DNA of 64,000 nt from a virus (taxonomy: Duplodnaviria > Caudoviricetes): positions 5,499 through 69,498 of the IMG/VR virus record IMGVR_UViG_3300002220_000035; one strand, 5' to 3'. Numbering within the stretch: position 1 is the stretch's first letter; the number at the start of each line of letters is the position of its first letter. Below, in pieces: positions 5,117-64,000 of the stretch. Made by a program: the position numbers and the translations under genes. The notes beneath the pieces were generated by a model, which worked only from the letters and a program-made list of their open reading frames with translations, did no database searches and was not told the DNA's origin.

Positions 5117-5568
5117 CGACCTTCGACACTGATGCAAACGTCAAGACCGAGGTCCAGGACATCAGCACATACACGATCGGGACCACAGGCACGATTACTG
5201 ACACAACATTTGGGATCTTCCTTACCAAGGCAAAAGCCCGGGTCACTCTTGACGACCCCGGGTTCACTCTGCAGCAATGCACCGAGGCCGTTGCCCTTCT
5301 CATCTGTCACCAGATCGCCCGGAAGAAAGGCCAGACTGGGAAAACCAGCTTATCGATTGGGAAATATTCCTACTCGAAGAAGCTGGCGAGCGGCCTGACT
5401 TCCTGGATGGACGACTACCTGGCAGCGGTCGCAGCGGTCCGGGGCGCGGAGATCGATGTTGATCAGATCAGTACGGCTGGCATCACCCGCGACGATGCGA
5501 ATATGAACGGTCTCGGGCTCGACCAGAGCATCCCCTACGATATCAACGACGAGGAACGAAATGGCTGA
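5113..5568 (+). CDS. Head-tail adaptor
   Basis: Position; C-terminal TRDDA...LDQ shared with 48515-48958 (RRSDA...LDQ). Confidence 0.6.
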   Translation: MTTFDTDANVKTEVQDISTYTIGTTGTITDTTFGIFLTKAKARVTLDDPGFTLQQCTEAVALLICHQIARKKGQTGKTSLSIGKYSYSKKLASGLTSWMDDYLAAVAAVRGAEIDVDQISTAGITRDDANMNGLGLDQSIPYDINDEERNG

Positions 5569-7860: not shown

Positions 7861-8235
7861 ATGACCGACCGATCCGTTCCGATTCAGCTGGACAAACTCC
7901 GGCACCTCCGGTTCACGTTCAACGATATCGCCGACATGCAGGCGGTATCCCCCGGGATTTTTGACAAGGACCTTACCGATTTCTCGGTTGTCCGGACCTA
8001 CCTATGGGGCGGTCTCAGGCATGAAGACAAGGACCTGCAGCCGTGGCCGGCGGGAGAGAAGAAGATCGGCGAGATTATCGAGACTCTCCTCGATGAAGAA
8101 CGGATCACCGTTGCGGACATTGTCCGGAAATGCAACGAGGCGATGGCCGTATCCATGACCATGACCTCCATCCGGAAATCGAACGCCGAGAGGAAAAAGA
8201 CAGAGGGTGAGGCAGGCACCCCCGCAAAAAACTAG
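7861..8235 (+). CDS. Tail assembly chaperone (lambda gpG-like)
   Basis: Between tail tube and tape measure; ends in slippery A AAA AAC TAG. Confidence 0.75.
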   Translation: MTDRSVPIQLDKLRHLRFTFNDIADMQAVSPGIFDKDLTDFSVVRTYLWGGLRHEDKDLQPWPAGEKKIGEIIETLLDEERITVADIVRKCNEAMAVSMTMTSIRKSNAERKKTEGEAGTPAKN

Positions 8236-8269
8236 CGGGCGAGTGGGTCGCCGCGATCGAACCGCTCGC
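8226..8269 (+). other. -1 programmed frameshift signal (slippery heptamer plus stem-loop)
   Basis: A AAA AAC at 8226-8232; stem GCGAGTGG (8239-46)/CCGCTCGC (8262-69); -1 frame open to 8576. Confidence 0.75.
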
Positions 8270-8576
8270 GTATGGGATCTGCAGGATGACACCAGAGCAG
8301 CTCTGGAACAGCACACCTGCAGAATTCCATGCAGTCCTCGCGGCACGAGTCGAGGACCGGGGAAAGCACGACAAGAACATCCTGGAATGCCTGGACACGA
8401 TGAATGCAAAACTCTGCGAGATCGTCGTCAAGGCACCCTACATCAAGGACCCGATAGACCGGGACCCCTCGGAGTTCCATGTCATGGAAAAAGAAAGTGA
8501 GGAACCGCCCCTGGACATGACCCCGGAAGGTATCCAGGAACGGGCATTTACGAGTTTCCAGAAGGTGAGTGGTTGA
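8232..8576 (+). CDS. gpGT-like frameshift extension of the tail chaperone
   Basis: -1 frame reads LAGEWVAAIEPLAYGICRMTPEQLWNSTPAEF, a typical T-extension motif. Confidence 0.7.
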   Translation, partial: LAGEWVAAIEPLAYGICRMTPEQLWNSTPAEFHAVLAARVEDRGKHDKNILECLDTMNAKLCEIVVKAPYIKDPIDRDPSEFHVMEKESEEPPLDMTPEGIQERAFTSFQKVSG

Positions 8577-8577
8577 A

Positions 8578-10065
8578 ATGGTAGAAGCAGGCAGTATCTG
8601 GATTCGGCTCGGCCTCGACCCGAGCGAGCTCCGATTCGGTCTCGACAAGGCCAAATACGGACTCCTCGAGTGGCGGGGGCAGGTCAACGAGAACAGCATG
8701 GAGATGGCGAAGTGGGGCGCTGCAATTGCCGCAGAAGCAGCCCCGGCAGTCGCCCTCGGTGCAGCCATCTATGACGCCACCACCAAGGCCGGGGCATTCG
8801 GAAAAGCCGTAAAGGACAACGCCCGGGACCTCGGCCTGACAACCGATGAGTACCAGCAGTGGAGCCATGCTGTTACCGTTTCCGGGGGGAACAACCAGGC
8901 ATTCACGGAGTCCGTCCGGATGATGACCGTGAGGATGAAAGAAGCCCTGGATCCGACATCGGAGATCGGCAAACAGTTCGCGGATCTTGGGGTGAAAGTC
9001 ACCGACTCGAACGGGAACATGAGGAACACGAACGAGGTCCTCCTGGACACGTTCACTGCCATCAACAAGCTTCCGGAAGGGTTTGCCCGCAACCAGGCGC
9101 AGATGATCATCTTCGGAAAAGGCTTCTCGAATATCTCTGATCTCGCGGGTATGAGCCGGGAACAGATCCAGGGACTTCTTGACCAGGCGCCGGTCATTGA
9201 CAGCGACAAGATCGCGAAGATGGATGCATTCAACGATAAGCTCGCCCTGGTCAACGAACAGTGGACCCTGATGTATGCCGAGCTCGGGACTGAACTGATC
9301 CCGGTGGTCGAAGAACTCCTGCCGCTCATCCAGGACTACGGGATCCCCGCGGTTGCCGAGCTCGCAACGGTCCTGGAATATGCCGGCCGCGGTTTTCACA
9401 TCGTTGGTTCCGAGGCGAAGGCAGCCTATGAGATCATCAACAATCACGATCTCGATGCTGCAAAGAAAGAGATGGAGGACCTTGCCTCTTGGATAGATGC
9501 AACCAGGACCGATGATGCGAACAAACTGTCGGGATATACCGAGGGTGCCTTCTGGGACAGCGTGAACAAGAAGTGGGTGAAGCCCACGAAGTCAGGAGGC
9601 AAGGCCCCGGAGGTCGTGGACAAGAATGCCGAGCAGGCCGAGAAGGACCGGGTAACCGCCCTTGTCGATGCCTGGAAGGAATATCAGGATGGTATCAAGA
9701 AGGTCCAGGAAGAGACGAAAAAACTGCAGGACATCAACAAGGACTTCACCCGCGAGATGTCGACCCTGAATCCGCGAGATGTGAGTGCAGCCCGGAACCT
9801 GATCATCAAGCACAACTATGCGGTCCAGGACCAGCAGGCCGCGTCGATTGCAGCGACCCAGGGCCTGAGTGCATCGGCAACCGAGTTCAACGCGATCCGG
9901 GCGGGCATGCCCCTGGACAAGGTCATGGGAACCAAGGAATACACCGAGGCCCAGGCAAAGAAATCCGGCGATCTTATCATCAACATCGAAGGCAAGCAGC
10001 TCGCCAGGATTCCAGGAGTAGCGACAACCTCTGGCGAGCGCTCTCTCATGCAGGCGGGATTTTGA
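8578..10065 (+). CDS. Tape measure protein
   Basis: Ala-rich helical protein after the chaperone; homologous to 52439-53953 (RGFHI.G, DRVTAL.DA). Confidence 0.85.
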   Translation: MVEAGSIWIRLGLDPSELRFGLDKAKYGLLEWRGQVNENSMEMAKWGAAIAAEAAPAVALGAAIYDATTKAGAFGKAVKDNARDLGLTTDEYQQWSHAVTVSGGNNQAFTESVRMMTVRMKEALDPTSEIGKQFADLGVKVTDSNGNMRNTNEVLLDTFTAINKLPEGFARNQAQMIIFGKGFSNISDLAGMSREQIQGLLDQAPVIDSDKIAKMDAFNDKLALVNEQWTLMYAELGTELIPVVEELLPLIQDYGIPAVAELATVLEYAGRGFHIVGSEAKAAYEIINNHDLDAAKKEMEDLASWIDATRTDDANKLSGYTEGAFWDSVNKKWVKPTKSGGKAPEVVDKNAEQAEKDRVTALVDAWKEYQDGIKKVQEETKKLQDINKDFTREMSTLNPRDVSAARNLIIKHNYAVQDQQAASIAATQGLSASATEFNAIRAGMPLDKVMGTKEYTEAQAKKSGDLIINIEGKQLARIPGVATTSGERSLMQAGF

Positions 10066-10406
10066 TGGTCGCCTGCACATTCAACGGAGTAACGGTCCAC
10101 TCGCGCAGCGTGGAGTCGGAGAGCGCCAAGGGGGCCTATACTTACGAGGTGATCCTGCTCTGCCGGACCGGCACATACTCGGACATCACCAGCCTCGAGG
10201 CCCTGCAGGGACACATAGGGACCCAGCTGCTGGCATCCGGGAAGACAAGGATCCAGACCACCGGGGGAACCAAGGCAACCCTGATCCTCAACGGTGTCAC
10301 TCATTTGAACTGCTACATCGCCGATCTTACGCACCGCGAGGTCCCGAACGCGCTGCCATTCGACCGGTGGGAATACACTGTGAAATTCATCCAGGAGACC
10401 ATATGA
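10065..10406 (+). CDS. Distal tail (Dit-like) protein
   Basis: Follows tape measure with TGATG overlap; shares NCYI motif with 53950-54294. Confidence 0.6.
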   Translation: MVACTFNGVTVHSRSVESESAKGAYTYEVILLCRTGTYSDITSLEALQGHIGTQLLASGKTRIQTTGGTKATLILNGVTHLNCYIADLTHREVPNALPFDRWEYTVKFIQETI

Positions 10407-10966
10407 GACCAGATCGAGATTTACTCTACAACAGACCGCCGCTCCCTGTACCGGGCATGTCCCGGTTTGAACTCATCCATGAGGATTCCGAGGGCAATGT
10501 ACTGAGTTATGACTGCGATTACGGCACGGGCGTAGCAATCCGGGCGGGTATCGGCCCGCACCAGATAGACAGTGATATCCCCTTCATGCCCCCGTTAGGG
10601 CCCCTGGGTGGAGCCCTCATCATCATCCCGACCGTAGGCCATGCGAAATTCGCAACCGATATCGGTGCCCTGACCGGCTGGACCATGGCGATCGGGATCG
10701 GGACTGGAGCGGAAGCGGCTGGAAATACGGCTCTCTCAAGCGAGATCACCACCTACGGGGGCGCTGCAGCATCAGTGACACCGACCGTGCTCACGAATGT
10801 GGTCACATGGACGCATCAGTGGACGTTCACAACCGGCGCGAACTTCGCCGTCATAGAGGCCGGAGTGAAGAAGGACACGATCCTCATGATGCGTCACCTG
10901 TACTCTGTGGCGAAGAATGTAGTGACATCGGATAAGCTAACCGCAACTCTGACTGATACCCTGTAA
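10403..10966 (+). CDS. Baseplate/tail-collar protein
   Basis: MAIG.G...A.NTAL..E...EAG motif shared with 54585-55001. Confidence 0.55.
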   Translation: MRPDRDLLYNRPPLPVPGMSRFELIHEDSEGNVLSYDCDYGTGVAIRAGIGPHQIDSDIPFMPPLGPLGGALIIIPTVGHAKFATDIGALTGWTMAIGIGTGAEAAGNTALSSEITTYGGAAASVTPTVLTNVVTWTHQWTFTTGANFAVIEAGVKKDTILMMRHLYSVAKNVVTSDKLTATLTDTL

Positions 10967-10977
10967 GGAGGACGAGA

Positions 10978-11364
10978 ATGACATTAACAAAAGGAACCCC
11001 ATCAGCAATTCTTTCGAACAAGACCGCTGCCGCTGCTGGCGCGACCACGCTCACAGACTGCACCTCAATAGACACCGATGCCAGTACAACCCTGGCACTT
11101 GAAGTGAAGGTTACATACGGAAGCTCGGCGACGCTCGCAGGGACCGTCAAGGTCTTCGCATCTTATGACGACACCAACTTCGATACCGATCCTGTCGAGC
11201 AGTTCGATCTCCCATTCACTACGAACACCACTAAATCCCAGACGTTCCTTCTGACACCCGCCCCGAGATACATGAAGGTGCAGGTAGTGAATAACGAGAC
11301 GGCAGAAGCAAACAAGGATATGACCGCTGTCTATGTCTATATGCACAAACAGGATGTATCGTAG
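10978..11364 (+). CDS. Putative tail structural protein
   Basis: Thr-rich beta protein with a good RBS in the baseplate module. Confidence 0.55.
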   Translation: MTLTKGTPSAILSNKTAAAAGATTLTDCTSIDTDASTTLALEVKVTYGSSATLAGTVKVFASYDDTNFDTDPVEQFDLPFTTNTTKSQTFLLTPAPRYMKVQVVNNETAEANKDMTAVYVYMHKQDVS

Positions 11365-11375
11365 GAGGCTCTGAG

Positions 11376-14300
11376 ATGGGCCTTTACGGCACATGGAAGT
11401 ATCGGGCGAATGTCAGGATCGCTAACCCTACTTCGGTCGCGAACTACCAGCACAAACTCACTCTTTCATGGCTGCCCGGCATGCGGGATGACTTTCGCGA
11501 TATCCGGTTTACAGCTCTGGAAGGAATCAACTGCTCTTACTGGATTGAGTCATTTACTTCGAAGGTTTCCGCAGTAATTTGGATAAAAGTCCCGCCGGCC
11601 AATCAGAGATATATCACCCTCTTCTATGGCAACGGAAGAGTATCTAGCGCGAGCAGCGGCACGGCGACATTTGTATTCTTCGATGACTTCACCGGAGCGG
11701 CATTAGATACTGGCAAATGGACGAACACAGGATGCAGTGGCACGCGGACGATTTCCGGCGGGCTGATGAATGACGTTACGACAAACAGGAACATCATCAA
11801 TGGCATCACGGACACTAACGATGCGACGGTAGTCACTTCCGGGAGATTCCGAGAGAACTCCAGAACCGGGGCAGACACAGGGGTTAGATTCGGCATCAAG
11901 ACGAATGGCACGTCTGGGGGGGCAAAGTTGTGCATGAGATCTGGCCAAATCGCTCCCCTGAACGAGGGAGTGGCATGGGGGAGCAACCTCCAGACATATA
12001 ATGCCTCAGAATGGTATATCTTTGAGATCCGTCACAACTACACCAATACCTTCTATTATCGCGTCGGGCACTCAGGATCATGGAGCTCAATGGCGATGAA
12101 TCCCGGCGGGACTCATCTCTGTGTTGATGCCATGGTAGCATCCGGCGGGTCTCTGAATTTAGACACAGACTGGGTCTTCCAACGCAAATACGCCGCCACA
12201 GAACCGACGCTCACCACTGTCTCCCATAAACCCAATCTTTCTACCAAATGGAATTATGTAGTCGGTGCTCCGACCGGAGAAACCTATGCTTTCGATCCCG
12301 TAAATATCGATCATGGGATGATTGCAGATTTAGGGGTCTTCGAGTATGACATAGGAGTGGTAAATGTCCCTCAGGGAATGAGTCCTGCAGTCGGTATCGT
12401 CGAATATGACCTTGCGACATACAATATTTTCCATCCTATATACCCGACAGCTTCGTGGGCCCAAATAATCGATCCGGTCGTTGATAGCGGGTATCTTATC
12501 GGGGTCACGGTCTCCCAGAGTATGGACGATGCCATGGCCGAGGCCGTCTTCGAATACGACGGCAATGAGATCGGGAACTATTTTTCAGGAGACTACATGA
12601 CACAGATCCATGTCAACATCCCTGACCATCTCGGGGTAAGCAACTGTGTCTTTGTCGGAATCATACCCTCCTCCCATGCGGTCTATGACGTGGCAAAAGA
12701 TAAGATGACCATGAGGGCGGTTGATTACGGACTGTTCCTGACAAAACAGACAATGGAAATCAAGGATCTCTCGCTCTTACCTCCGGACGACCAGGCTGCC
12801 GAGGGATCTAACGTTGCAAAAGAGCTCCATTACGATGGAAAAATCAAGAATTTTCAGATTGGGATGACCGTAACTGGTCAGATAAGCGCCGCAACGGGAA
12901 CGATCGTCTCATTGGTATCAACAACCGCCCAGATGATGACACTCTACCCGGCCACGGGAAAATTCATCGACGACGAGATCCTGCGGGTCGGGGGTGTTGA
13001 TTATGCTGTGGCAGATGGCCGATCAATCGATATCCCCTATACGCCCTATTATGCCACCGTCTATCCGGAGGATTGGGTCCGGGCGATCCTTGGTGGCGAT
13101 AACTGGATGCGAACCACCGGGATCGAACCGTGTTACCTAGAAAATTCCGGGGGATATTGGGATACTGCCATCTGTCCTGCAGTCCCGTTCATGTTTGGCA
13201 GCTTGGAGAAAAAACGGGATGCCTTGAAACGGATGGCGGCGTATATGAGCTATCTCTGGCATGTCAAACCGCGAAACCTCGGGAATGGGAATTATGTCCA
13301 GTCCGGGTATTTTATCCGACAGACCTCAATTGATACCCTCCTCGGCCTCCCGGCAGCGGCCACCATCGCCGGGCCAGATAATTTCGCAGGGCCAATCACG
13401 CTGGACCAGGATGGGGAACTTCAGGTCGATGTTGTCAAGGTCAGATGCCAGACACTGGAAGGATATTGGAAAGAGGCAATCCGGTCGAACAGTTATTACG
13501 ACGCCGGAGAGGGACCTTATCGAGAATTTGCAGATGAGCCGAAAGATATCTGTACCCAGTTAGATCTCGATGCATACGCCGCTGATATGTACAACATGTA
13601 TTCTGCCCGTACCTGTTCATGGTCTGCCACGCTCCTTCAAAGGTCGGATCTCCAGCTTTACCAGCTCCTGAACATTTCCGGAATGGGGATAGAAGTACCT
13701 GACGGAATTTATCGAATTATCAAGATTTCCCACGAATTCGGTTGCGCGAAGAATCTCACGCACATTACATTCATGCTGAGTTCATCCTTCTCAACGCTCC
13801 TGAAATATGGTATGACATACAAGGACAGCATATCAAAGGTCCAACAGATTGTCGAAGGGCTGGAAAACCGGAAACCTCAAATTGAGCTTGCGACCGTGAC
13901 CGCCACCGATGGATGGACGATCACCTATACGACCGAAGCCGGGAATGCTGGAAAGGGTAGAGATAGCACCTCCACCCCGGCAATAGCCGGGGCGATCCCG
14001 GTCGGGGCAAAGGTCCAGATCCAGAACAGCCGGGGGGGTATTATTTGCATCCCTATTGTAGCGGCATCCGGATCGAGCACTGATCTCCTTGTCGTAGGTG
14101 TTCCTACTATCGTCAGTGCAACCGTTGATCCCGCCGATCATAATTATTGGTTCCTGACGTGGATAGCTGGAACGAATAATCAGACCGTCAGTGTAAATTA
14201 TCAGACAACCGGATATCCTTCCGCCCCCGGTGTGGTGCTCCCCTATGGAAACCCTGCGAGTTGCAGATCGGTAAAATACCCCCTCGTGACACACTCTGCC

Positions 14301-14849
14301 CGTATAAGATTTTCAGGACCTAACACCGGTTATTACATCAAATTATGGGGTGAAAAAAACGGGGTATATAGCGCGACCGGTGCAACTGCAACCATCACAT
14401 CAGGGGCAGATGTTACCGTGGGAGACATTGAGGAGCCGGAACCGATAGGAGTGATTGACTACCCGATATCAGGCTTCTTCACAGGTTTTGAGACGTTGTC
14501 GGATCAGGTTTATCCGGTTGCCACTCTTAGTGCTTTCTCTTATAATGGCACGGACAATATCTACATCGGAGGCCCGCCGACGTATACCCCAGACTATTAT
14601 GGGGATGCCCGCGACGGATGGGGCAATCAGCCAACCCCGAGGTATATGATGGTGGATCAGTCGCTCGTAATCCGTACAGTCCATGATACTATCACAGTCG
14701 GGGGTTTGGGATATTTCGGATGGTTCGCCCCGGTTAATATCAAGAGCATCCTGGCCACGGGATTGAATACCATCACAATTGAGCTACATCACGGAGTGCC
14801 GGGATATTACGGGGTATCTGCGTTATGGGTGAGGACCTATTACCTGTGA
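11376..14849 (+). CDS. Large tail-tip/baseplate hub with N-terminal DUF2341-like and lectin-like receptor-binding region
   Basis: DFRDIRFT...YWIE...IWIKVP...YGN...TFVFFDDF N-terminus; central part homologous to 55799-58087 (PDHLGV). Confidence 0.7.
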   Translation: MGLYGTWKYRANVRIANPTSVANYQHKLTLSWLPGMRDDFRDIRFTALEGINCSYWIESFTSKVSAVIWIKVPPANQRYITLFYGNGRVSSASSGTATFVFFDDFTGAALDTGKWTNTGCSGTRTISGGLMNDVTTNRNIINGITDTNDATVVTSGRFRENSRTGADTGVRFGIKTNGTSGGAKLCMRSGQIAPLNEGVAWGSNLQTYNASEWYIFEIRHNYTNTFYYRVGHSGSWSSMAMNPGGTHLCVDAMVASGGSLNLDTDWVFQRKYAATEPTLTTVSHKPNLSTKWNYVVGAPTGETYAFDPVNIDHGMIADLGVFEYDIGVVNVPQGMSPAVGIVEYDLATYNIFHPIYPTASWAQIIDPVVDSGYLIGVTVSQSMDDAMAEAVFEYDGNEIGNYFSGDYMTQIHVNIPDHLGVSNCVFVGIIPSSHAVYDVAKDKMTMRAVDYGLFLTKQTMEIKDLSLLPPDDQAAEGSNVAKELHYDGKIKNFQIGMTVTGQISAATGTIVSLVSTTAQMMTLYPATGKFIDDEILRVGGVDYAVADGRSIDIPYTPYYATVYPEDWVRAILGGDNWMRTTGIEPCYLENSGGYWDTAICPAVPFMFGSLEKKRDALKRMAAYMSYLWHVKPRNLGNGNYVQSGYFIRQTSIDTLLGLPAAATIAGPDNFAGPITLDQDGELQVDVVKVRCQTLEGYWKEAIRSNSYYDAGEGPYREFADEPKDICTQLDLDAYAADMYNMYSARTCSWSATLLQRSDLQLYQLLNISGMGIEVPDGIYRIIKISHEFGCAKNLTHITFMLSSSFSTLLKYGMTYKDSISKVQQIVEGLENRKPQIELATVTATDGWTITYTTEAGNAGKGRDSTSTPAIAGAIPVGAKVQIQNSRGGIICIPIVAASGSSTDLLVVGVPTIVSATVDPADHNYWFLTWIAGTNNQTVSVNYQTTGYPSAPGVVLPYGNPASCRSVKYPLVTHSARIRFSGPNTGYYIKLWGEKNGVYSATGATATITSGADVTVGDIEEPEPIGVIDYPISGFFTGFETLSDQVYPVATLSAFSYNGTDNIYIGGPPTYTPDYYGDARDGWGNQPTPRYMMVDQSLVIRTVHDTITVGGLGYFGWFAPVNIKSILATGLNTITIELHHGVPGYYGVSALWVRTYYL

Positions 14850-14869
14850 CCTCTTTTTTCAGGCATACG

Positions 14870-14884
14870 ATTATCCCCTCAGAA
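14870..14884 (+). promoter_or_regulatory. Conserved 15-bp motif ATTATCCCCTCAGAA upstream of lipoprotein cargo
   Basis: Identical copy at 59631-59645 at nearly the same distance from the ATG. Confidence 0.5.
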
Positions 14885-14900
14885 AAATTATTGAAATAAT

Positions 14901-15506
14901 ATGCAAAAGTGGCAACTCGCTGCTGTCTTTCTTGGAATCGCAATTATAACCTCCCTTACCTGCGGGTGTATGAGCCAGGCATCACTGCAGCAACCGATCC
15001 CGACCGCCACTGCAACGATTCCCCCGCCATCTGTGACAGTGAAAGAAACGACCCGACCAGTGGCCTGCCACATGGAGGGAGAGGCGAAAGTCTGCTTGTA
15101 TACTGACATGACCCCGCCCCCCCTCGTCACCGCGATGAAGAAGACGGTAACAGTCCCAACCCCGGAGGAGATCCCCCAGATGGACAGACTCCCGGAAGAG
15201 ATTTCCGGATCCATTGCACAGCCAATCACTCTCACCGGGGTCGGGAATCAGATCGTCTGGTTCGAGACACAGGCACCAGGTGTCGTGAATTTCAAAATGA
15301 GATATAGTGCCGGATTAGGCGAGGTAAAAAACTGCGAGGAAAAGAAATTCGAGGTTTCTCTAGCAGGGAAATCAGTCGATACAAAATTATATTCCGGTGG
15401 ATCGGGGAGTACGCAGAACCCCGTCAGGACGTTTAATCTCCTTTCACCAAGTCGATATTCGCTCTCGGTGAAAGGTTGCTGGGGTTGGCAGATTACCGTC
15501 TCATAA
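14901..15506 (+). CDS. Archaeal lipoprotein (cargo)
   Basis: Signal peptide with LTCGC lipobox and Pro/Thr linker; N-terminus shared with 59661-60197. Confidence 0.75.
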   Translation: MQKWQLAAVFLGIAIITSLTCGCMSQASLQQPIPTATATIPPPSVTVKETTRPVACHMEGEAKVCLYTDMTPPPLVTAMKKTVTVPTPEEIPQMDRLPEEISGSIAQPITLTGVGNQIVWFETQAPGVVNFKMRYSAGLGEVKNCEEKKFEVSLAGKSVDTKLYSGGSGSTQNPVRTFNLLSPSRYSLSVKGCWGWQITVS

Positions 15507-15519
15507 GGAGTGTCACCAC

Positions 15520-15918
15520 ATGCAAAAATCCGGATATTTCCTTCTTCTCCTGGTTTGTTTAATTGCGATCACGGTTGCGGGGTGTTCGGGACCGGCAACA
15601 ATACCGGCGTCCGGTTCACCGGCCGTGACCATCTCTGAATCCCCCGATCCGATAATCGGCTCCTGGATGACGATCGGAGACTCCACACTTTACTATGTCT
15701 TCAGGCCACAAGGTTATTTTTCATCTGGTGAACTGAAGAGCCCGGGATTAACCCTTGTTGGGAAGTGGGAAAGAGTCAAGGAGAATGAGTATCTTATCAC
15801 GATCGACGGTGCAGCGCCAATGACCATTATCTACGTCCCGAACGGCGATTATATTTACGACAACATCATGCCGGCAGTGCACGCAACGAGATATGCAGTG
15901 ACACCGTCGAGTAAATAA
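15520..15918 (+). CDS. Archaeal lipoprotein with lipocalin-like domain (cargo)
   Basis: VAGC lipobox; DPIIGSW...GKW motif. Confidence 0.7.
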   Translation: MQKSGYFLLLLVCLIAITVAGCSGPATIPASGSPAVTISESPDPIIGSWMTIGDSTLYYVFRPQGYFSSGELKSPGLTLVGKWERVKENEYLITIDGAAPMTIIYVPNGDYIYDNIMPAVHATRYAVTPSSK

Positions 15919-15931
15919 TTTTTTAAAAACG

Positions 15932-15953
15932 ATGCGAGGGATGGGATTCGAAC
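15932..15953 (-). repeat. att core copy 1 (3' 22 bp of tRNA-Leu)
   Basis: ATGCGAGGGATGGGATTCGAAC, identical at 62075-62096 and 63980-64000. Confidence 0.9.
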
Positions 15954-16017
15954 CCAAGAACTCCTACGAGATTAGGCCCTCAACCTAACGCCTTTGACCT
16001 GGCTTGGCTACCCTCGC
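15933..16017 (-). tRNA. tRNA-Leu (GAG), archaeal, CCA not encoded
   Basis: GCGAGGG/CCCTCGC acceptor stem, TTAGG-TTGAGGG-CCTAA anticodon arm, long variable arm, GGTTCGAATCC T-arm. Confidence 0.95.
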
Positions 16018-16077
16018 ATGGGTAACTGAGGAAATGCACCGCGATGCAGCGACAACCCTTGGATCAAGACCCTCAAC

Positions 16078-16104
16078 ATAGTGCAAAACATAGGCACTAT
16101 ATAT
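16078..16104. promoter_or_regulatory. Inverted repeat overlapping a TATA-like box upstream of int
   Basis: ATAGTGC-N9-GCACTAT running into CTATATAT about 22-30 nt before ATG 16126. Confidence 0.45.
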
Positions 16105-16125
16105 GAGCGAAAACCACTCAGGATC

Positions 16126-17253
16126 ATGGGTGTGCTGGACAAATATCGGAAAATCGACCCGGTTAATAAAAAATATTTTACTGATTATCTGCGGTACCTG
16201 CAGCTGCGGAATATCAAATCCACGACGATCGATACTAAGTTCTGGAAAATTTATGGATTCCTCCTCTGGTCGGAGTTCAGGGATGCAAAGGAGGTCCTGC
16301 CGGAGGACCTGGAGAATTTTTACCTGCACCGCAAGGAAACGAAGAGTCCTGTCACGGCTTACGGGGACCTCCAGGAGCTTGAGATCTTCTTCCGCTGGCT
16401 CCTGCCGGATCGGAAGGTAATCACCTTCAAACCGCAACGGCCCCGCGTGGAGATCTCACCCGAGAAGATCCCGCAGGCCCAGGATATCCGGGATATCCTC
16501 GCAGTATGCCAGACGCAGCGGGACCGTGCCCTGGTTGCAACATACTGGAACTCTGGCGGCCGTCTCAGCGAGCTCCTGGATGCCAATGTTGGAAACGTCC
16601 AGTTCGACCGGTACGGTGCGATTATCTCAGTGGATGGAAAAACAGGTAAACGGCAGATCCGGTTGGTCTCCGCGGTCCCGGACCTGCAACTCTGGCTGAG
16701 CCGGTTCCACCCCTACAAGAACGACCCGAATGCCCCGTTATTCGTTACCTCCCGCGAGAGAGGGTCTGGCAAATACGTCCGGCTGAATGCCAGGACCGTG
16801 CAGAACCTGTTCAAGCGCCTGGGTGTCCGGGCGGGCCTCTCGGGAAAGGGAAAGAAGACGAACCCGCATGCATACCGTCACGGATGCGCCACCAACAGGG
16901 CCAAGGACATGACCGAGGCCGAACTGCGGGAATACTTCGGATGGTCGAAAGGATCCACCATGGCCTCGGTGTACGTGCACCTCTCGGGCCGGGATATCGA
17001 CAACAAGGTCCTCGCGATCGATGGAGTAAAGCTCGAGGAAGACCAGGACCCGGACCCGATGCTGCCCCTGGAGTGCCCGCGCTGCAGCCGCAGGAACGCC
17101 CCGGACGCGATCTTGTGCGACCGCTGCAGCATGGCTCTGACTGATGAGGCTCTAAAATTTATGGATGGTGTCCAGGCCCTTCGAAATGATCCCGAAACTC
17201 TCATCGAGTTTGGCGAGTGGCTGATGAAAAAGAACAAAGCCGGCAAGACCTGA
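16126..17253 (+). CDS. int: Tyrosine integrase with C-terminal zinc ribbon
   Basis: Catalytic set R (GGRLSEL), K (GKTGKR), HxxR (HAYRHG), W (GWS), Y (VYVHL); adjacent to att/tRNA. Confidence 0.95.
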   Translation: MGVLDKYRKIDPVNKKYFTDYLRYLQLRNIKSTTIDTKFWKIYGFLLWSEFRDAKEVLPEDLENFYLHRKETKSPVTAYGDLQELEIFFRWLLPDRKVITFKPQRPRVEISPEKIPQAQDIRDILAVCQTQRDRALVATYWNSGGRLSELLDANVGNVQFDRYGAIISVDGKTGKRQIRLVSAVPDLQLWLSRFHPYKNDPNAPLFVTSRERGSGKYVRLNARTVQNLFKRLGVRAGLSGKGKKTNPHAYRHGCATNRAKDMTEAELREYFGWSKGSTMASVYVHLSGRDIDNKVLAIDGVKLEEDQDPDPMLPLECPRCSRRNAPDAILCDRCSMALTDEALKFMDGVQALRNDPETLIEFGEWLMKKNKAGKT

Positions 17254-18006
17254 AAGGGGCTCCCCCCTCGCAATCTCCCGGACGCTTCCCGCCGCTGGCG
17301 CACGGCTGCCATCATGGATCGACCGTGCCGAATGTGATCGGCACCGTCTTCCTGATGGCATGCAGCGCCTGCAGGCTGTCCGCTATCGAATCTGGCCGGT
17401 GCGGCCAGACTCGCGGGAGATATGCAGGTACCCGCCACCCATCCGCCCCTCTCGCCCTGTCCTTCGGACAGCGCGATTCACCCCGCCCCGGATGATGGGT
17501 ATAACCCGGAAGTTAAGGGTTGATCTCCGGGGTAATGGTCAGACAATCCGACCAGAAAATATTTTATCTGATATATCCTTCGTTCCATAATCGCATGTAT
17601 CTTAAACGACTCATCTTTACGGGGTTTAGTGTGGAAGGGCCCGCATCGACAGAGCCGCCTATCAAGAAGATACGTCGGGATTAATTCGCTCCCGCCCGGA
17701 GGTCCGGGCAGGATCTCGGGGTTTATACATTGTTGGAGGCAGTTGGAGAGGTCACCTGCCGTCAGTAGTGAAGATAAGGGAAGGGATGAGCACGACTAGA
17801 AACATCACTTTCGCAATGCATGGAACACAGAATATTATTCATAGAAAATTAAGGAAAACACGGGTGAGTATGAATGTATGACAGGAACAAACACCCCTTA
17901 TTCCCTATTAAAAAGGATCTCCTAGAGGCAGTAAAAAAACAGGATTCATCACCGTTCATCGAATTCCTGATTGAAAAAATGCAGGGAGAAGAGAGAGAGG
18001 ACAAAT

Positions 18007-18387
18007 CTATTTCTTCTTATGCTTCTCAAGCCAATCCGCGTATTCCCGCATCACATCTGGATCTGTCTTGAATTTATTGATATAATCCTTGAAATTCCGC
18101 ATCTCTTCAGCTGCAGCCTGGTTTAATGGTTGCCCGCACCCCCCGCAGTAATTCGTGAAGGGTTCATTGATTTTCATACAGAGCGGGCATTGGTACGGTA
18201 ACAGGGGGGCCTCACGGTTCTCATCAAAATGAGATCCGAGAATCGTGATCATTACCTGACTCGTTTTACAATGATGCTTGTTTGCATCTTTAACGATCGG
18301 GTTCCAGATCTTCGCAGGGACCCTTAACGTTTTGAATTTATGCTCCCCCTCTTTTATCAACCCATCATCATCGGTCATAATCACCAA
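18007..18387 (-). CDS. Ribbon-helix-helix regulator with integrase-like Zn-ribbon tail (candidate repressor)
   Basis: KTLRVP beta-strand plus two helices; C-terminus PLLPYQCPLC...CGGC...DP..REYADWL. Confidence 0.65.
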   Translation of the reverse strand: MVIMTDDDGLIKEGEHKFKTLRVPAKIWNPIVKDANKHHCKTSQVMITILGSHFDENREAPLLPYQCPLCMKINEPFTNYCGGCGQPLNQAAAEEMRNFKDYINKFKTDPDVMREYADWLEKHKKK

Positions 18388-18506
18388 CTGCTTTTGAGTT
18401 ACAATTTAATAAATATTTCCTCACTCGTTAAAATGTGTTAAAAAATTGATAAGTTTTATATACTATTGATACAGAATACCACATTATAACCAAAAGAGGT
18501 GAAAAA
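18388..18506. promoter_or_regulatory. AT-rich divergent promoter (genetic switch)
   Basis: Between divergent small regulators; TTTTATATA; ATTGATA repeated at 18445 and 18465; GTTAAAA at 18427 and 18437. Confidence 0.55.
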
Positions 18507-18704
18507 GTGGACAAAACAAACATGGACGGAACCGAGTGTGTCCGGATCCGGGTCGAACCTAACGATCCCCTGTATCCTGACATCAAGTTCCTGCAGAAGT
18601 GGTACCGCAACCCCGAGATGGTGCGGGAAGCAATCCGCAGACTTGCCACAGCACGCAGGGCAGAAGAGTTCCAGATCAGTCAACCCACCAAGGCGAGCGC
18701 ATGA
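18507..18704 (+). CDS. Small RHH-like DNA-binding protein (Cro-like position)
   Basis: VRIRVE...EMVREAIRRL; first gene of the early operon. Confidence 0.5.
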   Translation: MDKTNMDGTECVRIRVEPNDPLYPDIKFLQKWYRNPEMVREAIRRLATARRAEEFQISQPTKASA

Positions 18705-19423: not shown

Positions 19424-19425
19424 TC

Positions 19426-19845
19426 ATGGCCGATACAGCACCCGCGTCCGGCGCTATCTACCGCCCGCCGGCCTATGCACTCCTTGAGCAGGACCTGAAA
19501 GATATCGCGATCCTGGTTGATGATGCAGGGATCCCCCGCACGCAGGCCACGGTCCTGATCGCCCTGCACAGGTATGCAAAGGGCAACGTCACGAGCCGTT
19601 GGATCGAACGGGTCGCGGACCTCCGGCAGCCGGAAGTCTCGATCGCCATGGCCGCATTCAAGGTCGCAGGCCTCATCGCTGTGACCGAAGAGAAAGCCCC
19701 ATCGAAAGGCCGCCCGGTGGCCGTCTATCATGTCAAGGGCGATATCGCCCAATACGTCAAGGACAGGATCAGCACACGCCTGGCCGAACTCAACAAGGGC
19801 GTCATGGCCGTGAACCGCATCTTCGCCAAGGAGGCAGCGGCATGA
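19426..19845 (+). CDS. Winged-helix transcriptional regulator (COG4738-like, methanogen type)
   Basis: SRWIERVADLRQPEVSIAM...KGRPVAVY motif. Confidence 0.8.
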   Translation: MADTAPASGAIYRPPAYALLEQDLKDIAILVDDAGIPRTQATVLIALHRYAKGNVTSRWIERVADLRQPEVSIAMAAFKVAGLIAVTEEKAPSKGRPVAVYHVKGDIAQYVKDRISTRLAELNKGVMAVNRIFAKEAAA

Positions 19846-59630: not shown

Positions 59631-59645
59631 ATTATCCCCTCAGAA
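59631..59645 (+). promoter_or_regulatory. Second copy of ATTATCCCCTCAGAA
   Basis: Identical to 14870-14884. Confidence 0.5.
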
Positions 59646-59660
59646 TATTATTAGTGGGAT

Positions 59661-60197
59661 ATGCAAAAGTGGCAAGTCGCTGCTCTGATCCTTGTCGGAA
59701 TTGCGATCGTACTTACCTGCGGATGTATGAGCCAGGCGGCACCTCAGCAGGTGACGCCAACGGCAACGGTCATCCAGACCGCAGCCCCCATTGTGACATC
59801 GGTTTCCCCGACCGCGATCATCACGACCCCGCCGATACCAACCACTATAGAAACCACGGAACCAACACCAGTACCGACCACAGACACATCAGCCGGTGCA
59901 CTGGACGCACCTGTGCACCTGAGTTCAAAACTTCCTCCTGAAGGAAAAATCGCCTTCACAACGGTCCGTCCTGGGGAGGTCAAAATCCGTGTGTATTGTC
60001 TGTCCCCCGCAAAGGCCGTATTGACTTCAGCGAGTATGGATCAGGTATTACTGCAGGCAAAGAGCAGCCCAGGATCATCGAAAGAGATAACAATCAACCT
60101 TATCACGCCACAGACATACTGGATCACTTTTTCAGGGTTCAACAAGGCAGATATCGGCACTCAGAAAATGTGGCAACTCGACGTGACCAATGCATAG
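59661..60197 (+). CDS. Archaeal lipoprotein (cargo)
   Basis: LTCGC lipobox and Thr/Pro linker; homolog of 14901-15506. Confidence 0.75.
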   Translation: MQKWQVAALILVGIAIVLTCGCMSQAAPQQVTPTATVIQTAAPIVTSVSPTAIITTPPIPTTIETTEPTPVPTTDTSAGALDAPVHLSSKLPPEGKIAFTTVRPGEVKIRVYCLSPAKAVLTSASMDQVLLQAKSSPGSSKEITINLITPQTYWITFSGFNKADIGTQKMWQLDVTNA

Positions 60198-61854: not shown

Positions 61855-62072
61855 TTTTGAAAGCTACAATTGACCGTATAGAAGGGAATCTTGCAATCCT
61901 GATCACACAGGACGAAAAGCCAATAACATTTAATCTCCCTGTACCGTTCCTGGGAGATGCACGGGAGGGAGATATTGTCGATATCACTATCACCCAAGAT
62001 ACCGGGAGCACGCAGACTACCAGAGAACGTGTATCCTCAATGATTGAGAAACTGAAAAAGAAATCGAACTAA
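61848..62072 (+). CDS. DUF3006-like small protein
   Basis: IDRIEGNLAIL...LP.....EGDIV; usual partner of ComEC-like genes. Confidence 0.75.
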   Translation: MLILKATIDRIEGNLAILITQDEKPITFNLPVPFLGDAREGDIVDITITQDTGSTQTTRERVSSMIEKLKKKSN

Positions 62073-62074
62073 AA

Positions 62075-62096
62075 ATGCGAGGGATGGGATTCGAAC
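62075..62096 (-). repeat. att core copy 2
   Basis: 22-bp identity with the tRNA-Leu 3' end. Confidence 0.9.
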
Positions 62097-63941: not shown

Positions 63942-63979
63942 TCCTTCATTATTTTTGTTTGATCTTTCTGAAAAACAGA

Positions 63980-64000
63980 ATGCGAGGGATGGGATTCGAA
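63980..64000 (-). repeat. att core copy 3 (truncated by the window edge; possibly the 3' end of the host tRNA-Leu)
   Basis: ATGCGAGGGATGGGATTCGAA. Confidence 0.88.

Follow-up and report, generated by a model that had tools for sequence, protein, structure and literature searches.

A zinc-ribbon and helix-DP-helix tail common to a tyrosine integrase and a probable ribbon-helix-helix regulator in a methanogen provirus

Introduction

In phages P2 and 186 a single small protein, Cox or Apl, throws the lysis-lysogeny switch and also acts as excisionase. The C-terminal domains of ribbon-helix-helix (RHH) repressors typically join dimers, P22 Mnt being the classic case. In large serine integrases, the recombination directionality factor (RDF) binds a zinc-ribbon domain with an embedded coiled coil (bioRxiv 10.1101/2025.01.03.631226; PMC11795197). 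For the tyrosine recombinase XerA, the alpha-N helix has been described as a molecular switch and the C-terminal segment past the catalytic Tyr docks on the neighbouring protomer; such segments govern assembly in tyrosine recombinases (PMC3646895). According to a 2021 review of archaeal tyrosine recombinases, from which zinc is absent, the characterised archaeal integrases all integrate and excise without a directionality factor (PMC8371274). As the only archaeal example of small co-encoded proteins that modulate a provirus integrase, it gives SNJ2, with Orf2 and Orf3 (PMC5861418; PMC8371274). This raises the question of how an archaeal provirus settles whether to stay or to leave. Here we analyse a 64,000-nt stretch of viral DNA (hereafter the window; positions 5,499 to 69,498), which makes up most of the 69.5-kb IMG/VR virus record IMGVR_UViG_3300002220_000035. 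It carries the gene of a tyrosine integrase (int; protein Int) and, convergent to it, the gene of a small protein, a probable RHH regulator, whose C-terminal tail is homologous to that of Int. Loci and proteins used for comparison are designated by L and P numbers, respectively.

Results

Int and the regulator end in a homologous module

The Int open reading frame (ORF) occupies positions 16081..17253 of the plus strand, with a probable start at ATG 16126 as judged from homologues; the ORF of the regulator lies at 18007..18387 on the minus strand, its probable start, again from homologues, being ATG 18378 (123 aa). BLASTP aligned the last ~70 residues of Int with those of the regulator (Int 310-390 and small protein 46-125), with 24/81 identities (30%) and an E value of 2e-12. 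Within the 69.5-kb record, matches to either tail are confined to these two genes. An earlier note on this DNA had quoted both tails and claimed that their motifs match. The quoted residues are exact, and the spacing is indeed identical in the zinc ribbon (P-x-L-P-x2-CPxC-x3-N-x-P-x4-CxxC-x3-L) and in the last helix (DP-x4-E-[FY]-x2-WL-x-K), while the helix between these two elements is 4 residues longer in the small protein. The likeness is not due to chance or merely to a generic zinc ribbon: with the ribbon left out, the last 38 residues gave a local alignment score of 62; shuffled sequences averaged 19, and 0 of 2000 reached 62. By these alignments, the tails represent two copies of a single small autonomous domain and descend from a common ancestor.

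AlphaFold2 (AF2) models, all of them of monomers, show the same layout in both tails, that is, a Cys4 zinc ribbon (CPxC-x11-CxxC, with short paired strands) followed by a helix-DP-helix hairpin. In Int, the ribbon (CPRC...CDRC; 17065..17147, plus strand) forms short strands at residues 315-337, and its Cys residues are invariant in 19 integrases. The terminal hairpin (17148..17253, plus strand, stop codon included), delimited from the model and from the alignment with the regulator tail, has helices at residues 340-354 and 356-373 and a Lys-rich end. The module is tethered by a flexible acidic and Pro-rich linker (17020..17064, plus strand; residues 299-313), which AF2 models with low confidence (predicted local distance difference test score, pLDDT, of ~54, and <50 at residues 305-309). 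The corresponding part of the regulator (18007..18210, minus strand, stop codon included) comprises a CPLC...CGGC ribbon at residues 61-84, helices at 87-105 and 107-121 and a Lys-rich end, with pLDDT values of 79-87. Cys, DP, EY and WL are invariant among the 7 regulator homologues.

The ribbon falls short of the Pfam thresholds. That of Int has sub-threshold matches to DZR and DZR_2; the two window proteins score 16.4-19.9 bits against DZR, under the curated cut-off of 27.3, and the 7 members of the regulator family are below or near threshold, with a best E value of 1e-5. As a fold, the ribbon weakly matches RanBP2/NZF fingers (root-mean-square deviation 0.6-1.4 over 23-26 residues).

The two proteins that carry the module

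Int belongs to the tyrosine recombinases. Its core (16126..17019, plus strand) consists of a SAM-like N-terminal domain and a tyrosine-recombinase catalytic domain, and reaches to the helix after the catalytic Tyr. It matches Pfam PF00589 Phage_integrase with 58.9 bits (cut-off 27.1; E=7e-16), Phage_int_SAM_4 at 2.4e-5 and PHROG_1 (integrase) at 1e-23. The AF2 model (mean pLDDT 85) shows a XerA/Cre-like core up to about residue 298, for which Foldseek returned XerA (5hxy), Cre, XerH and lambda Int at probability 1.00 and with E values down to 5e-12. The Arg of QRDRA, the Arg of H-A-[YF]-R-H and the Tyr of Y-V-H-L-S, the catalytic residues, are invariant among 19 family members. In the AF2 layout, a separate arm-binding domain is absent from this integrase family. 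Frameshifted or truncated integrases of the family are common in methanogen and Methanoperedens genomes (L022 3790-5084, minus strand; L037 597-1758, plus strand; L079, L080 and L083-L087). They leave the ribbon-hairpin tail as a separate small ORF, which can be mistaken for a stand-alone ribbon protein.

The N-terminal domain of the small protein (18220..18339, minus strand) is probably an RHH DNA-binding domain. AF2 places helices at residues 22-35 and 38-50, preceded by a strand region that is not modelled, and the structural neighbours of this part in the ESM Atlas are Arc, CopG RHH_1, HicB and MazE-like proteins (TM-score 0.65-0.72). No Pfam RHH match was obtained for any of the 7 family members, and the domain has no sequence match in the PDB; the proteins encoded at the equivalent position elsewhere (P0014, P0015 and the partner in L009) have weak matches to RHH_3, Arc, NikA and CcdA. 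With moderate support, then, the modelled fold points to an RHH regulator. Its gene runs leftward and faces a rightward early operon, which is the position of a switch regulator; it is from this position that we infer a role as repressor.

The module is a standard tail of archaeal integrases

The earlier note had taken the module for a device special to an integrase-repressor pair. It is far commoner and less partner-bound than that, being instead the standard C-terminal tail of many archaeal integrases, mostly without a partner. A profile made from five modules found 3769 matches at E<=1e-3 among 1.84 billion representative proteins. Nearly all of the 150 best matches cover only positions ~10-40 of the profile and are multi-ribbon DZR-type proteins. 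Whole-module matches among the sequences inspected were integrases or their C-terminal fragments (P0019, P0020, P0025, P0055, P0058, P0066, P0078, P0095, P0117, P0142 and P0147) and the regulator clusters P0006 and P0018. Integrase relatives in Methanoperedens, Methanolobus and Methanococcoides keep the ribbon, with variable helices after it. Each of five Methanoregula genomes has 1-8 module matches, mostly in integrase-sized frames. Across the Methanomicrobiales, 182 of 301 genomes have a match (E<=1e-4); of the matches listed, the majority are located in frames of 370-530 aa and align with no more than the module part of the profile. The structural neighbours of the module in the ESM Atlas are likewise archaeal integrase clusters, from Methanobacteriota and Nitrososphaerota, in some of which a quarter of the members carry a Zn_Ribbon_1 label. 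Altogether, the ribbon alone is generic and the ribbon-plus-hairpin is the hallmark tail of a large group of archaeal integrases. At the level of sequence motifs, DP-x4-E-[YF]-x2-WL-x-K marks a subset of these tails together with the regulator family.

This distribution bears on the idea that redox state or zinc is sensed by the Cys4 ribbon, whose oxidation in a strict anaerobe would unfold both modules at once, lifting repression and altering the integrase; such a sensor would correspond to the one inducing signal of the earlier note. The four Cys are invariant in both families, Cys4 zinc sites are redox switches in some proteins, and we know of no RecA/LexA-type induction route for archaeal viruses. 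However, hundreds of integrases from unrelated elements and thousands of generic zinc-ribbon proteins have the same ribbon, which fits a structural zinc site better. We consider a sensor function highly improbable.

The regulator family is small: it comprises 7 sequences, with 54-71% identity to the one in the window, and no further loci were found in the viral, metagenome and genome contig collections scanned. Small-ORF matches in L079-L081, L083-L087 and L022 were rejected as regulators, being C-terminal pieces of frameshifted integrases; L082 gave no match upon re-scan.

The integrase hairpin is inherited with the regulatory cassette

Comparison by blastn places a mosaic breakpoint right after the zinc ribbon of Int (17147..17148, int codon ~356). 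Window positions 8138-17147, comprising structural genes, the tRNA gene next to int, the int body and the ribbon, are 98.5% identical to L006 1-9022. The similarity of L007, L008 and L005 to the window likewise stops at 17147-17149; as measured on the related contig L007, it resumes only at 19425 (window 19425-19826 vs L007 3190-3588). The swapped block of ~2.3 kb holds the Int hairpin, a micro-ORF, the regulator gene, the switch and the first early genes. Its counterpart in L006 and L007 is an unrelated segment of ~2 kb that contains an HNH gene and another RHH gene; these loci have a different Int hairpin, and their RHH partner, P0014, lacks the ribbon. Since the identity to L006 ends right after the ribbon, the Int hairpin was inherited with the regulatory cassette. 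In other words, the last 35 residues of the integrase belong genetically to that cassette, in an arrangement resembling the immunity-region swaps of lambdoid phages.

The hairpin is also the fastest-evolving part of the integrase. Its identity is 26-37% where bodies are 60-65% identical, and between the window Int and P0011 the values for body, ribbon and tail are 96, 92 and 33%. Evolution so much faster than that of the body is easier to reconcile with a partner-specific surface than with a conserved contact to host or DNA. The same data can be set against an alternative in which nucleic acid is the ligand of the module, with arm-type sites near att, operator flanks or tRNA-like DNA as targets, and the two proteins cooperate or compete on the same DNA in the manner of the lambda Int arm-binding domain and Xis. 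Small ribbons of the RanBP2/NZF kind are capable of nucleic-acid binding, and RNA-bound zinc fingers are among the weak structural matches; moreover, both proteins retain the Lys-rich C-terminal end, and a nucleic-acid-binding tail would suit integrases that have no arm-binding domain of their own. On the other hand, with the final few Lys set aside, the net charge of the module, read from the sequence, is near zero, and in this it differs from a typical DNA-binding domain. A search for arm-type or operator repeats common to the att-proximal regions, the int-regulator gap and the switch returned only isolated 9-11-mers and no repeated motif. Finally, the hairpin is hypervariable among integrases that use the same tRNA-Leu(GAG) and hence does not set the choice of site. 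Binding to nucleic acid thus appears improbable; a tethered, compact, near-neutral module that is hypervariable at one and the same tRNA-Leu(GAG) fits a partner-specific protein surface better than it fits site recognition or contact with a host factor.

Within the regulator family, conservation of the module equals or exceeds that of the N-terminal domain (mean pairwise identity 65.5% vs 60.6%), and the module is therefore under selection.

Association, contact and domain reuse

We propose that the module is a protein-protein association domain, fused behind a probable RHH domain in a rare provirus regulator family. On the operators of the divergent switch, the regulator would use it to assemble RHH dimers into higher oligomers; Int would use it to connect protomers or to make an accessory contact within the recombination complex. 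Because the regulator copy keeps the integrase-tail signature DP-x4-E-[YF]-x2-WL-x-K, it could occupy the site normally bound by the integrase tail, tying the level of repressor to integrase activity. We lean slightly towards a module that mediates association or self-association; contact between Int and the regulator is plausible, though less likely than not. To the explanation as a whole we give an even chance. The joint inheritance of hairpin and cassette is the one positive hint of a physical link; together with the recurrence of the convergent layout (below), it speaks circumstantially for coupling.

Examination of the neighbourhoods of these genes, a check that the earlier note had called for, indicated that the pairing of integrase and RHH protein is real in a few elements and obligate in neither direction. 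The regulator gene has a convergent integrase gene beside it in the window and in L005, where a WL hairpin is present on Int as well; the other contigs with the full signature, among them L026 but not L024 (see below), are too short to judge. A convergent layout of int and an RHH gene, with or without the ribbon, recurs in L005, L006-L009 and L042. In the last of these (L042 2209-3859, a Methanoregulaceae chromosome), the integrase gene is followed by a convergent gene for a 111-aa protein with RHH, zinc ribbon and helix; the integrase itself has a long helical tail without a zinc ribbon, and the likeness of its tail to the partner is marginal (score 31, p=0.04). The remaining RHH-ribbon proteins are, like that of L042, more distant from the window regulator. 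Those on the short contigs L073 and L074 occur without an integrase. Further proteins of 113-123 aa with RHH, zinc ribbon and helices are encoded on chromosomes, all on the minus strand (L075 4946-5317, L076 5020-5391, L077 4999-5340 and L078 513-878). They have only the ribbon in common with the window regulator and no integrase within ~5 kb. Hydrolase and methyltransferase genes are the neighbours of this set, those in L075-L077 being alpha/beta-hydrolase-like and L076 and L077 having in addition a conserved 234-aa neighbour. They probably represent a cellular regulator family of the same architecture in Methanomicrobiales.

A rival explanation is that the two proteins have the same domain and no dialogue: a self-contained oligomerisation or stability domain, reused by domain shuffling in methanogen mobile elements, of which each protein would employ its own copy without any encounter, the likeness being a matter of ancestry alone. 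Most integrases with this tail have no such partner; the chromosomal RHH-ribbon genes just described lie next to hydrolase and methyltransferase genes; and the L042 integrase lacks a ribbon although its convergent partner has one. Several other observations weigh against our proposal; those on the tree and on L024 also agree with reuse. A tree of 35 modules unites the seven regulator copies in one clade (96/97), but this clade groups, weakly (81/83), with the tails of other integrase subgroups (P0055, P0147, P0066, P0095, P0142 and L022) and not with that of its neighbour. In L024 the regulator has no integrase beside it, and WL-hairpin integrases occur without such a regulator in L010, L032, L033 and L037. 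Cognate tails are clearly alike in the window and L005 only; in L006 and L042 the likeness is marginal, and L008 and L009 show none. A neutral account of the breakpoint is available too, in which the ribbon is the last stretch alike enough for crossover. Searches with Foldseek, VIA-align wide and a PDB profile found no solved structure resembling the whole module, only generic small zinc fingers. Against mere reuse, the regulator retains the exact integrase-tail signature down to EY-x2-WL-x-K, WL hairpins occur on both Int and the regulator in each of two lineages whose Int bodies are only ~60% identical, and the hairpin travels with the regulatory cassette. Reuse without dialogue is, in our estimate, a serious possibility that falls short of an even chance. 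Of the earlier note's idea, an oligomerisation domain coupling repressor and integrase, the homologous module, the probable RHH domain and the position of the regulator facing the early operon stand; the many integrases without a partner, the grouping of the regulator module with other integrase tails, the regulator of L024 and the chromosomal RHH-ribbon proteins do not fit it.

Two further relationships were looked for and set aside. General co-variation of Int tails and partner tails in six int/RHH pairs beat 713 of 720 permutations, with the signal coming from two related pairs (window and L005), and it is retained merely as a lead. A recent origin of the regulator module by local inverted duplication of the int 3' end was rejected, as the 3' ends of int and the regulator gene retain no DNA-level inverted repeat and the module groups elsewhere than with the cognate tail; an old event of this kind is possible. 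Because the regulator module groups away from the neighbouring Int tail, the tree argues for one old capture or a shared origin and not for a recent copy of the neighbour.

Control region and micro-ORF

Downstream of int the gene order is as follows: a 620-bp gap, a micro-ORF on the plus strand, the regulator gene on the minus strand, an AT-rich region of 128 bp and the rightward early genes, which include those for a MarR-like winged helix-turn-helix protein and an HD-domain protein. The gap (17254-17873) was searched for a non-coding RNA or a terminator: Rfam gave a sub-threshold match only (26 bits vs 44), hence no family, and no terminator-like site is present. The AT-rich region (18379..18506) separates the regulator gene from the divergent early genes. 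It contains two copies of ATTGATA, 24 bp apart from start to start, flanking a TATA-like stretch; these copies are candidate operators for the regulator. Promoter-like matches were found in this region on both strands, with a scan whose consensus is bacterial only. To the eye, the first rightward ORF (18507-18704, 65 aa) has a strand-helix-helix pattern; it has no family match.

The micro-ORF (17874..18071, plus strand) converges on the regulator gene and overlaps its 3' end. Homologues were found by blastp, with E values of 5e-10 to 3e-4, at the same position in L005 (2541-2759), L024 (615-743) and L026 (971-1087), all on the minus strand; in the window and in these three loci the micro-ORF is always directly past the regulator gene, on the opposite strand and in overlap with the 3' end of that gene. 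The conserved core is about 30-40 residues and includes an F-I-x-F motif. No Pfam or PHROG match was obtained. A relationship to an early 51-aa ORF, suspected by eye, found no support, as BLASTP gave no alignment. Its place on the strand of int, between that gene and the regulator gene, makes the micro-ORF a candidate for a small accessory or excision protein.

Attachment site, provirus and host

A tRNA-Leu(GAG) gene (15931..16018, minus strand; ARAGORN, Rfam) adjoins int as att site, 108 bp ahead of the int start, and the same tRNA is found directly upstream of int in L005-L009. Its 3' part occurs again at 62068-62095 and 63973-64000 (direct repeat family D3). Int is therefore encoded by the opening gene of a ~46 kb provirus within a tandem array. 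A 50-nt stretch of the tRNA-Leu(GAG) gene is an exact match to sequences in Methanoregula/Methanoregulaceae genomes (L027-L031), and this match identifies the host lineage as Methanoregula/Methanoregulaceae. No integrase lies near the matching tRNA-Leu in the five Methanoregula genomes, so that these sites are empty and can be used as attB sites for comparison.

Both tandem proviruses carry at their att-proximal end a lipoprotein gene, the 5' ends of the two genes being near-identical (window 14884-15010 vs 59644-59767). In L024, a lipoprotein gene (864-1439) directly abuts the micro-ORF and the regulator gene, with neither tRNA nor int in between. This arrangement suggests a virus variant without an integration cassette at this place.

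Discussion

Two things stand out in this locus: a tail domain on a tyrosine integrase that has not been studied, and a probable RHH regulator with a captured copy of that domain. The earlier note knew of no description of such an arrangement, and our search of the literature agrees with it, as no description of a tail common to integrase and regulator was found. To the question of how archaeal proviruses stay or leave, the locus offers two handles. The first is the integrase tail itself, which is widespread and undescribed in the literature searched, though automatic Pfam labels already flag a zinc ribbon on some of these integrases. The second is a natural case of a switch regulator carrying the same domain. 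Natural swap variants exist, such as the window Int and P0011, with nearly identical bodies but different hairpins and partner regulators, which make a test cheap. Even without cross-talk between the two proteins, the annotation is useful: an integrase with a zinc-ribbon-hairpin tail is a marker of methanogen mobile elements, and RHH plus zinc ribbon is a regulator architecture.

In its strongest form, our proposal makes the regulator a mimic of the tail, which would dock at the Int-tail site or pair with the tail itself, the concentration of repressor setting the assembly of the active complex. The sequence likeness permits this version, which we nonetheless judge unlikely. If true, it would be the first known directionality or activity factor for an archaeal integrase, working through domain mimicry and not through DNA bending. 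A variant of it would have the Cys4 site also sense oxidation, as an induction signal for strict anaerobes.

With XerA- and Cre-type recombinases the window Int has in common the two-domain fold and the helix after the catalytic Tyr; the notion that assembly and activity are controlled from the extreme C terminus carries over as well. It differs from them by ~75 extra residues (linker, Cys4 zinc ribbon and helix-DP-helix), which are absent from the matched PDB recombinases. Large serine integrases likewise have a C-terminal zinc ribbon with a helical element, one that makes direction-setting contacts and is acted on by a small phage protein. However, their catalysis relies on serine, their ribbon binds DNA, their coiled coil is inserted, and the known RDFs have no copy of an integrase domain. 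Since Int has a tyrosine catalytic domain, it is not of the large serine integrase type and the resemblance is a functional analogy only.

The SNJ2 system also has small proteins acting on an integrase, but that integrase belongs to another family and a haloarchaeal host, the accessory genes lie in the int operon, and a shared domain has not been reported. Along with the large serine integrases and their RDFs, P2 Cox and 186 Apl are the nearest working analogies. They resemble the cross-talk proposed here in that a transcriptional switch is coupled to the direction of recombination by a protein encoded at the switch. They differ in binding and bending DNA at att sites and promoters, in having no domain in common with the integrase and in promoting the lytic state, whereas the window regulator is in repressor position. 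P22 Mnt and, from an archaeal virus, SSV1 F55 are RHH regulators, as the window protein probably is, and like it they are small regulators at viral switches; in the Mnt type a C-terminal helical part joins dimers. Unlike Mnt and F55, the window regulator carries at its C terminus a zinc ribbon and hairpin homologous to the tail of an integrase.

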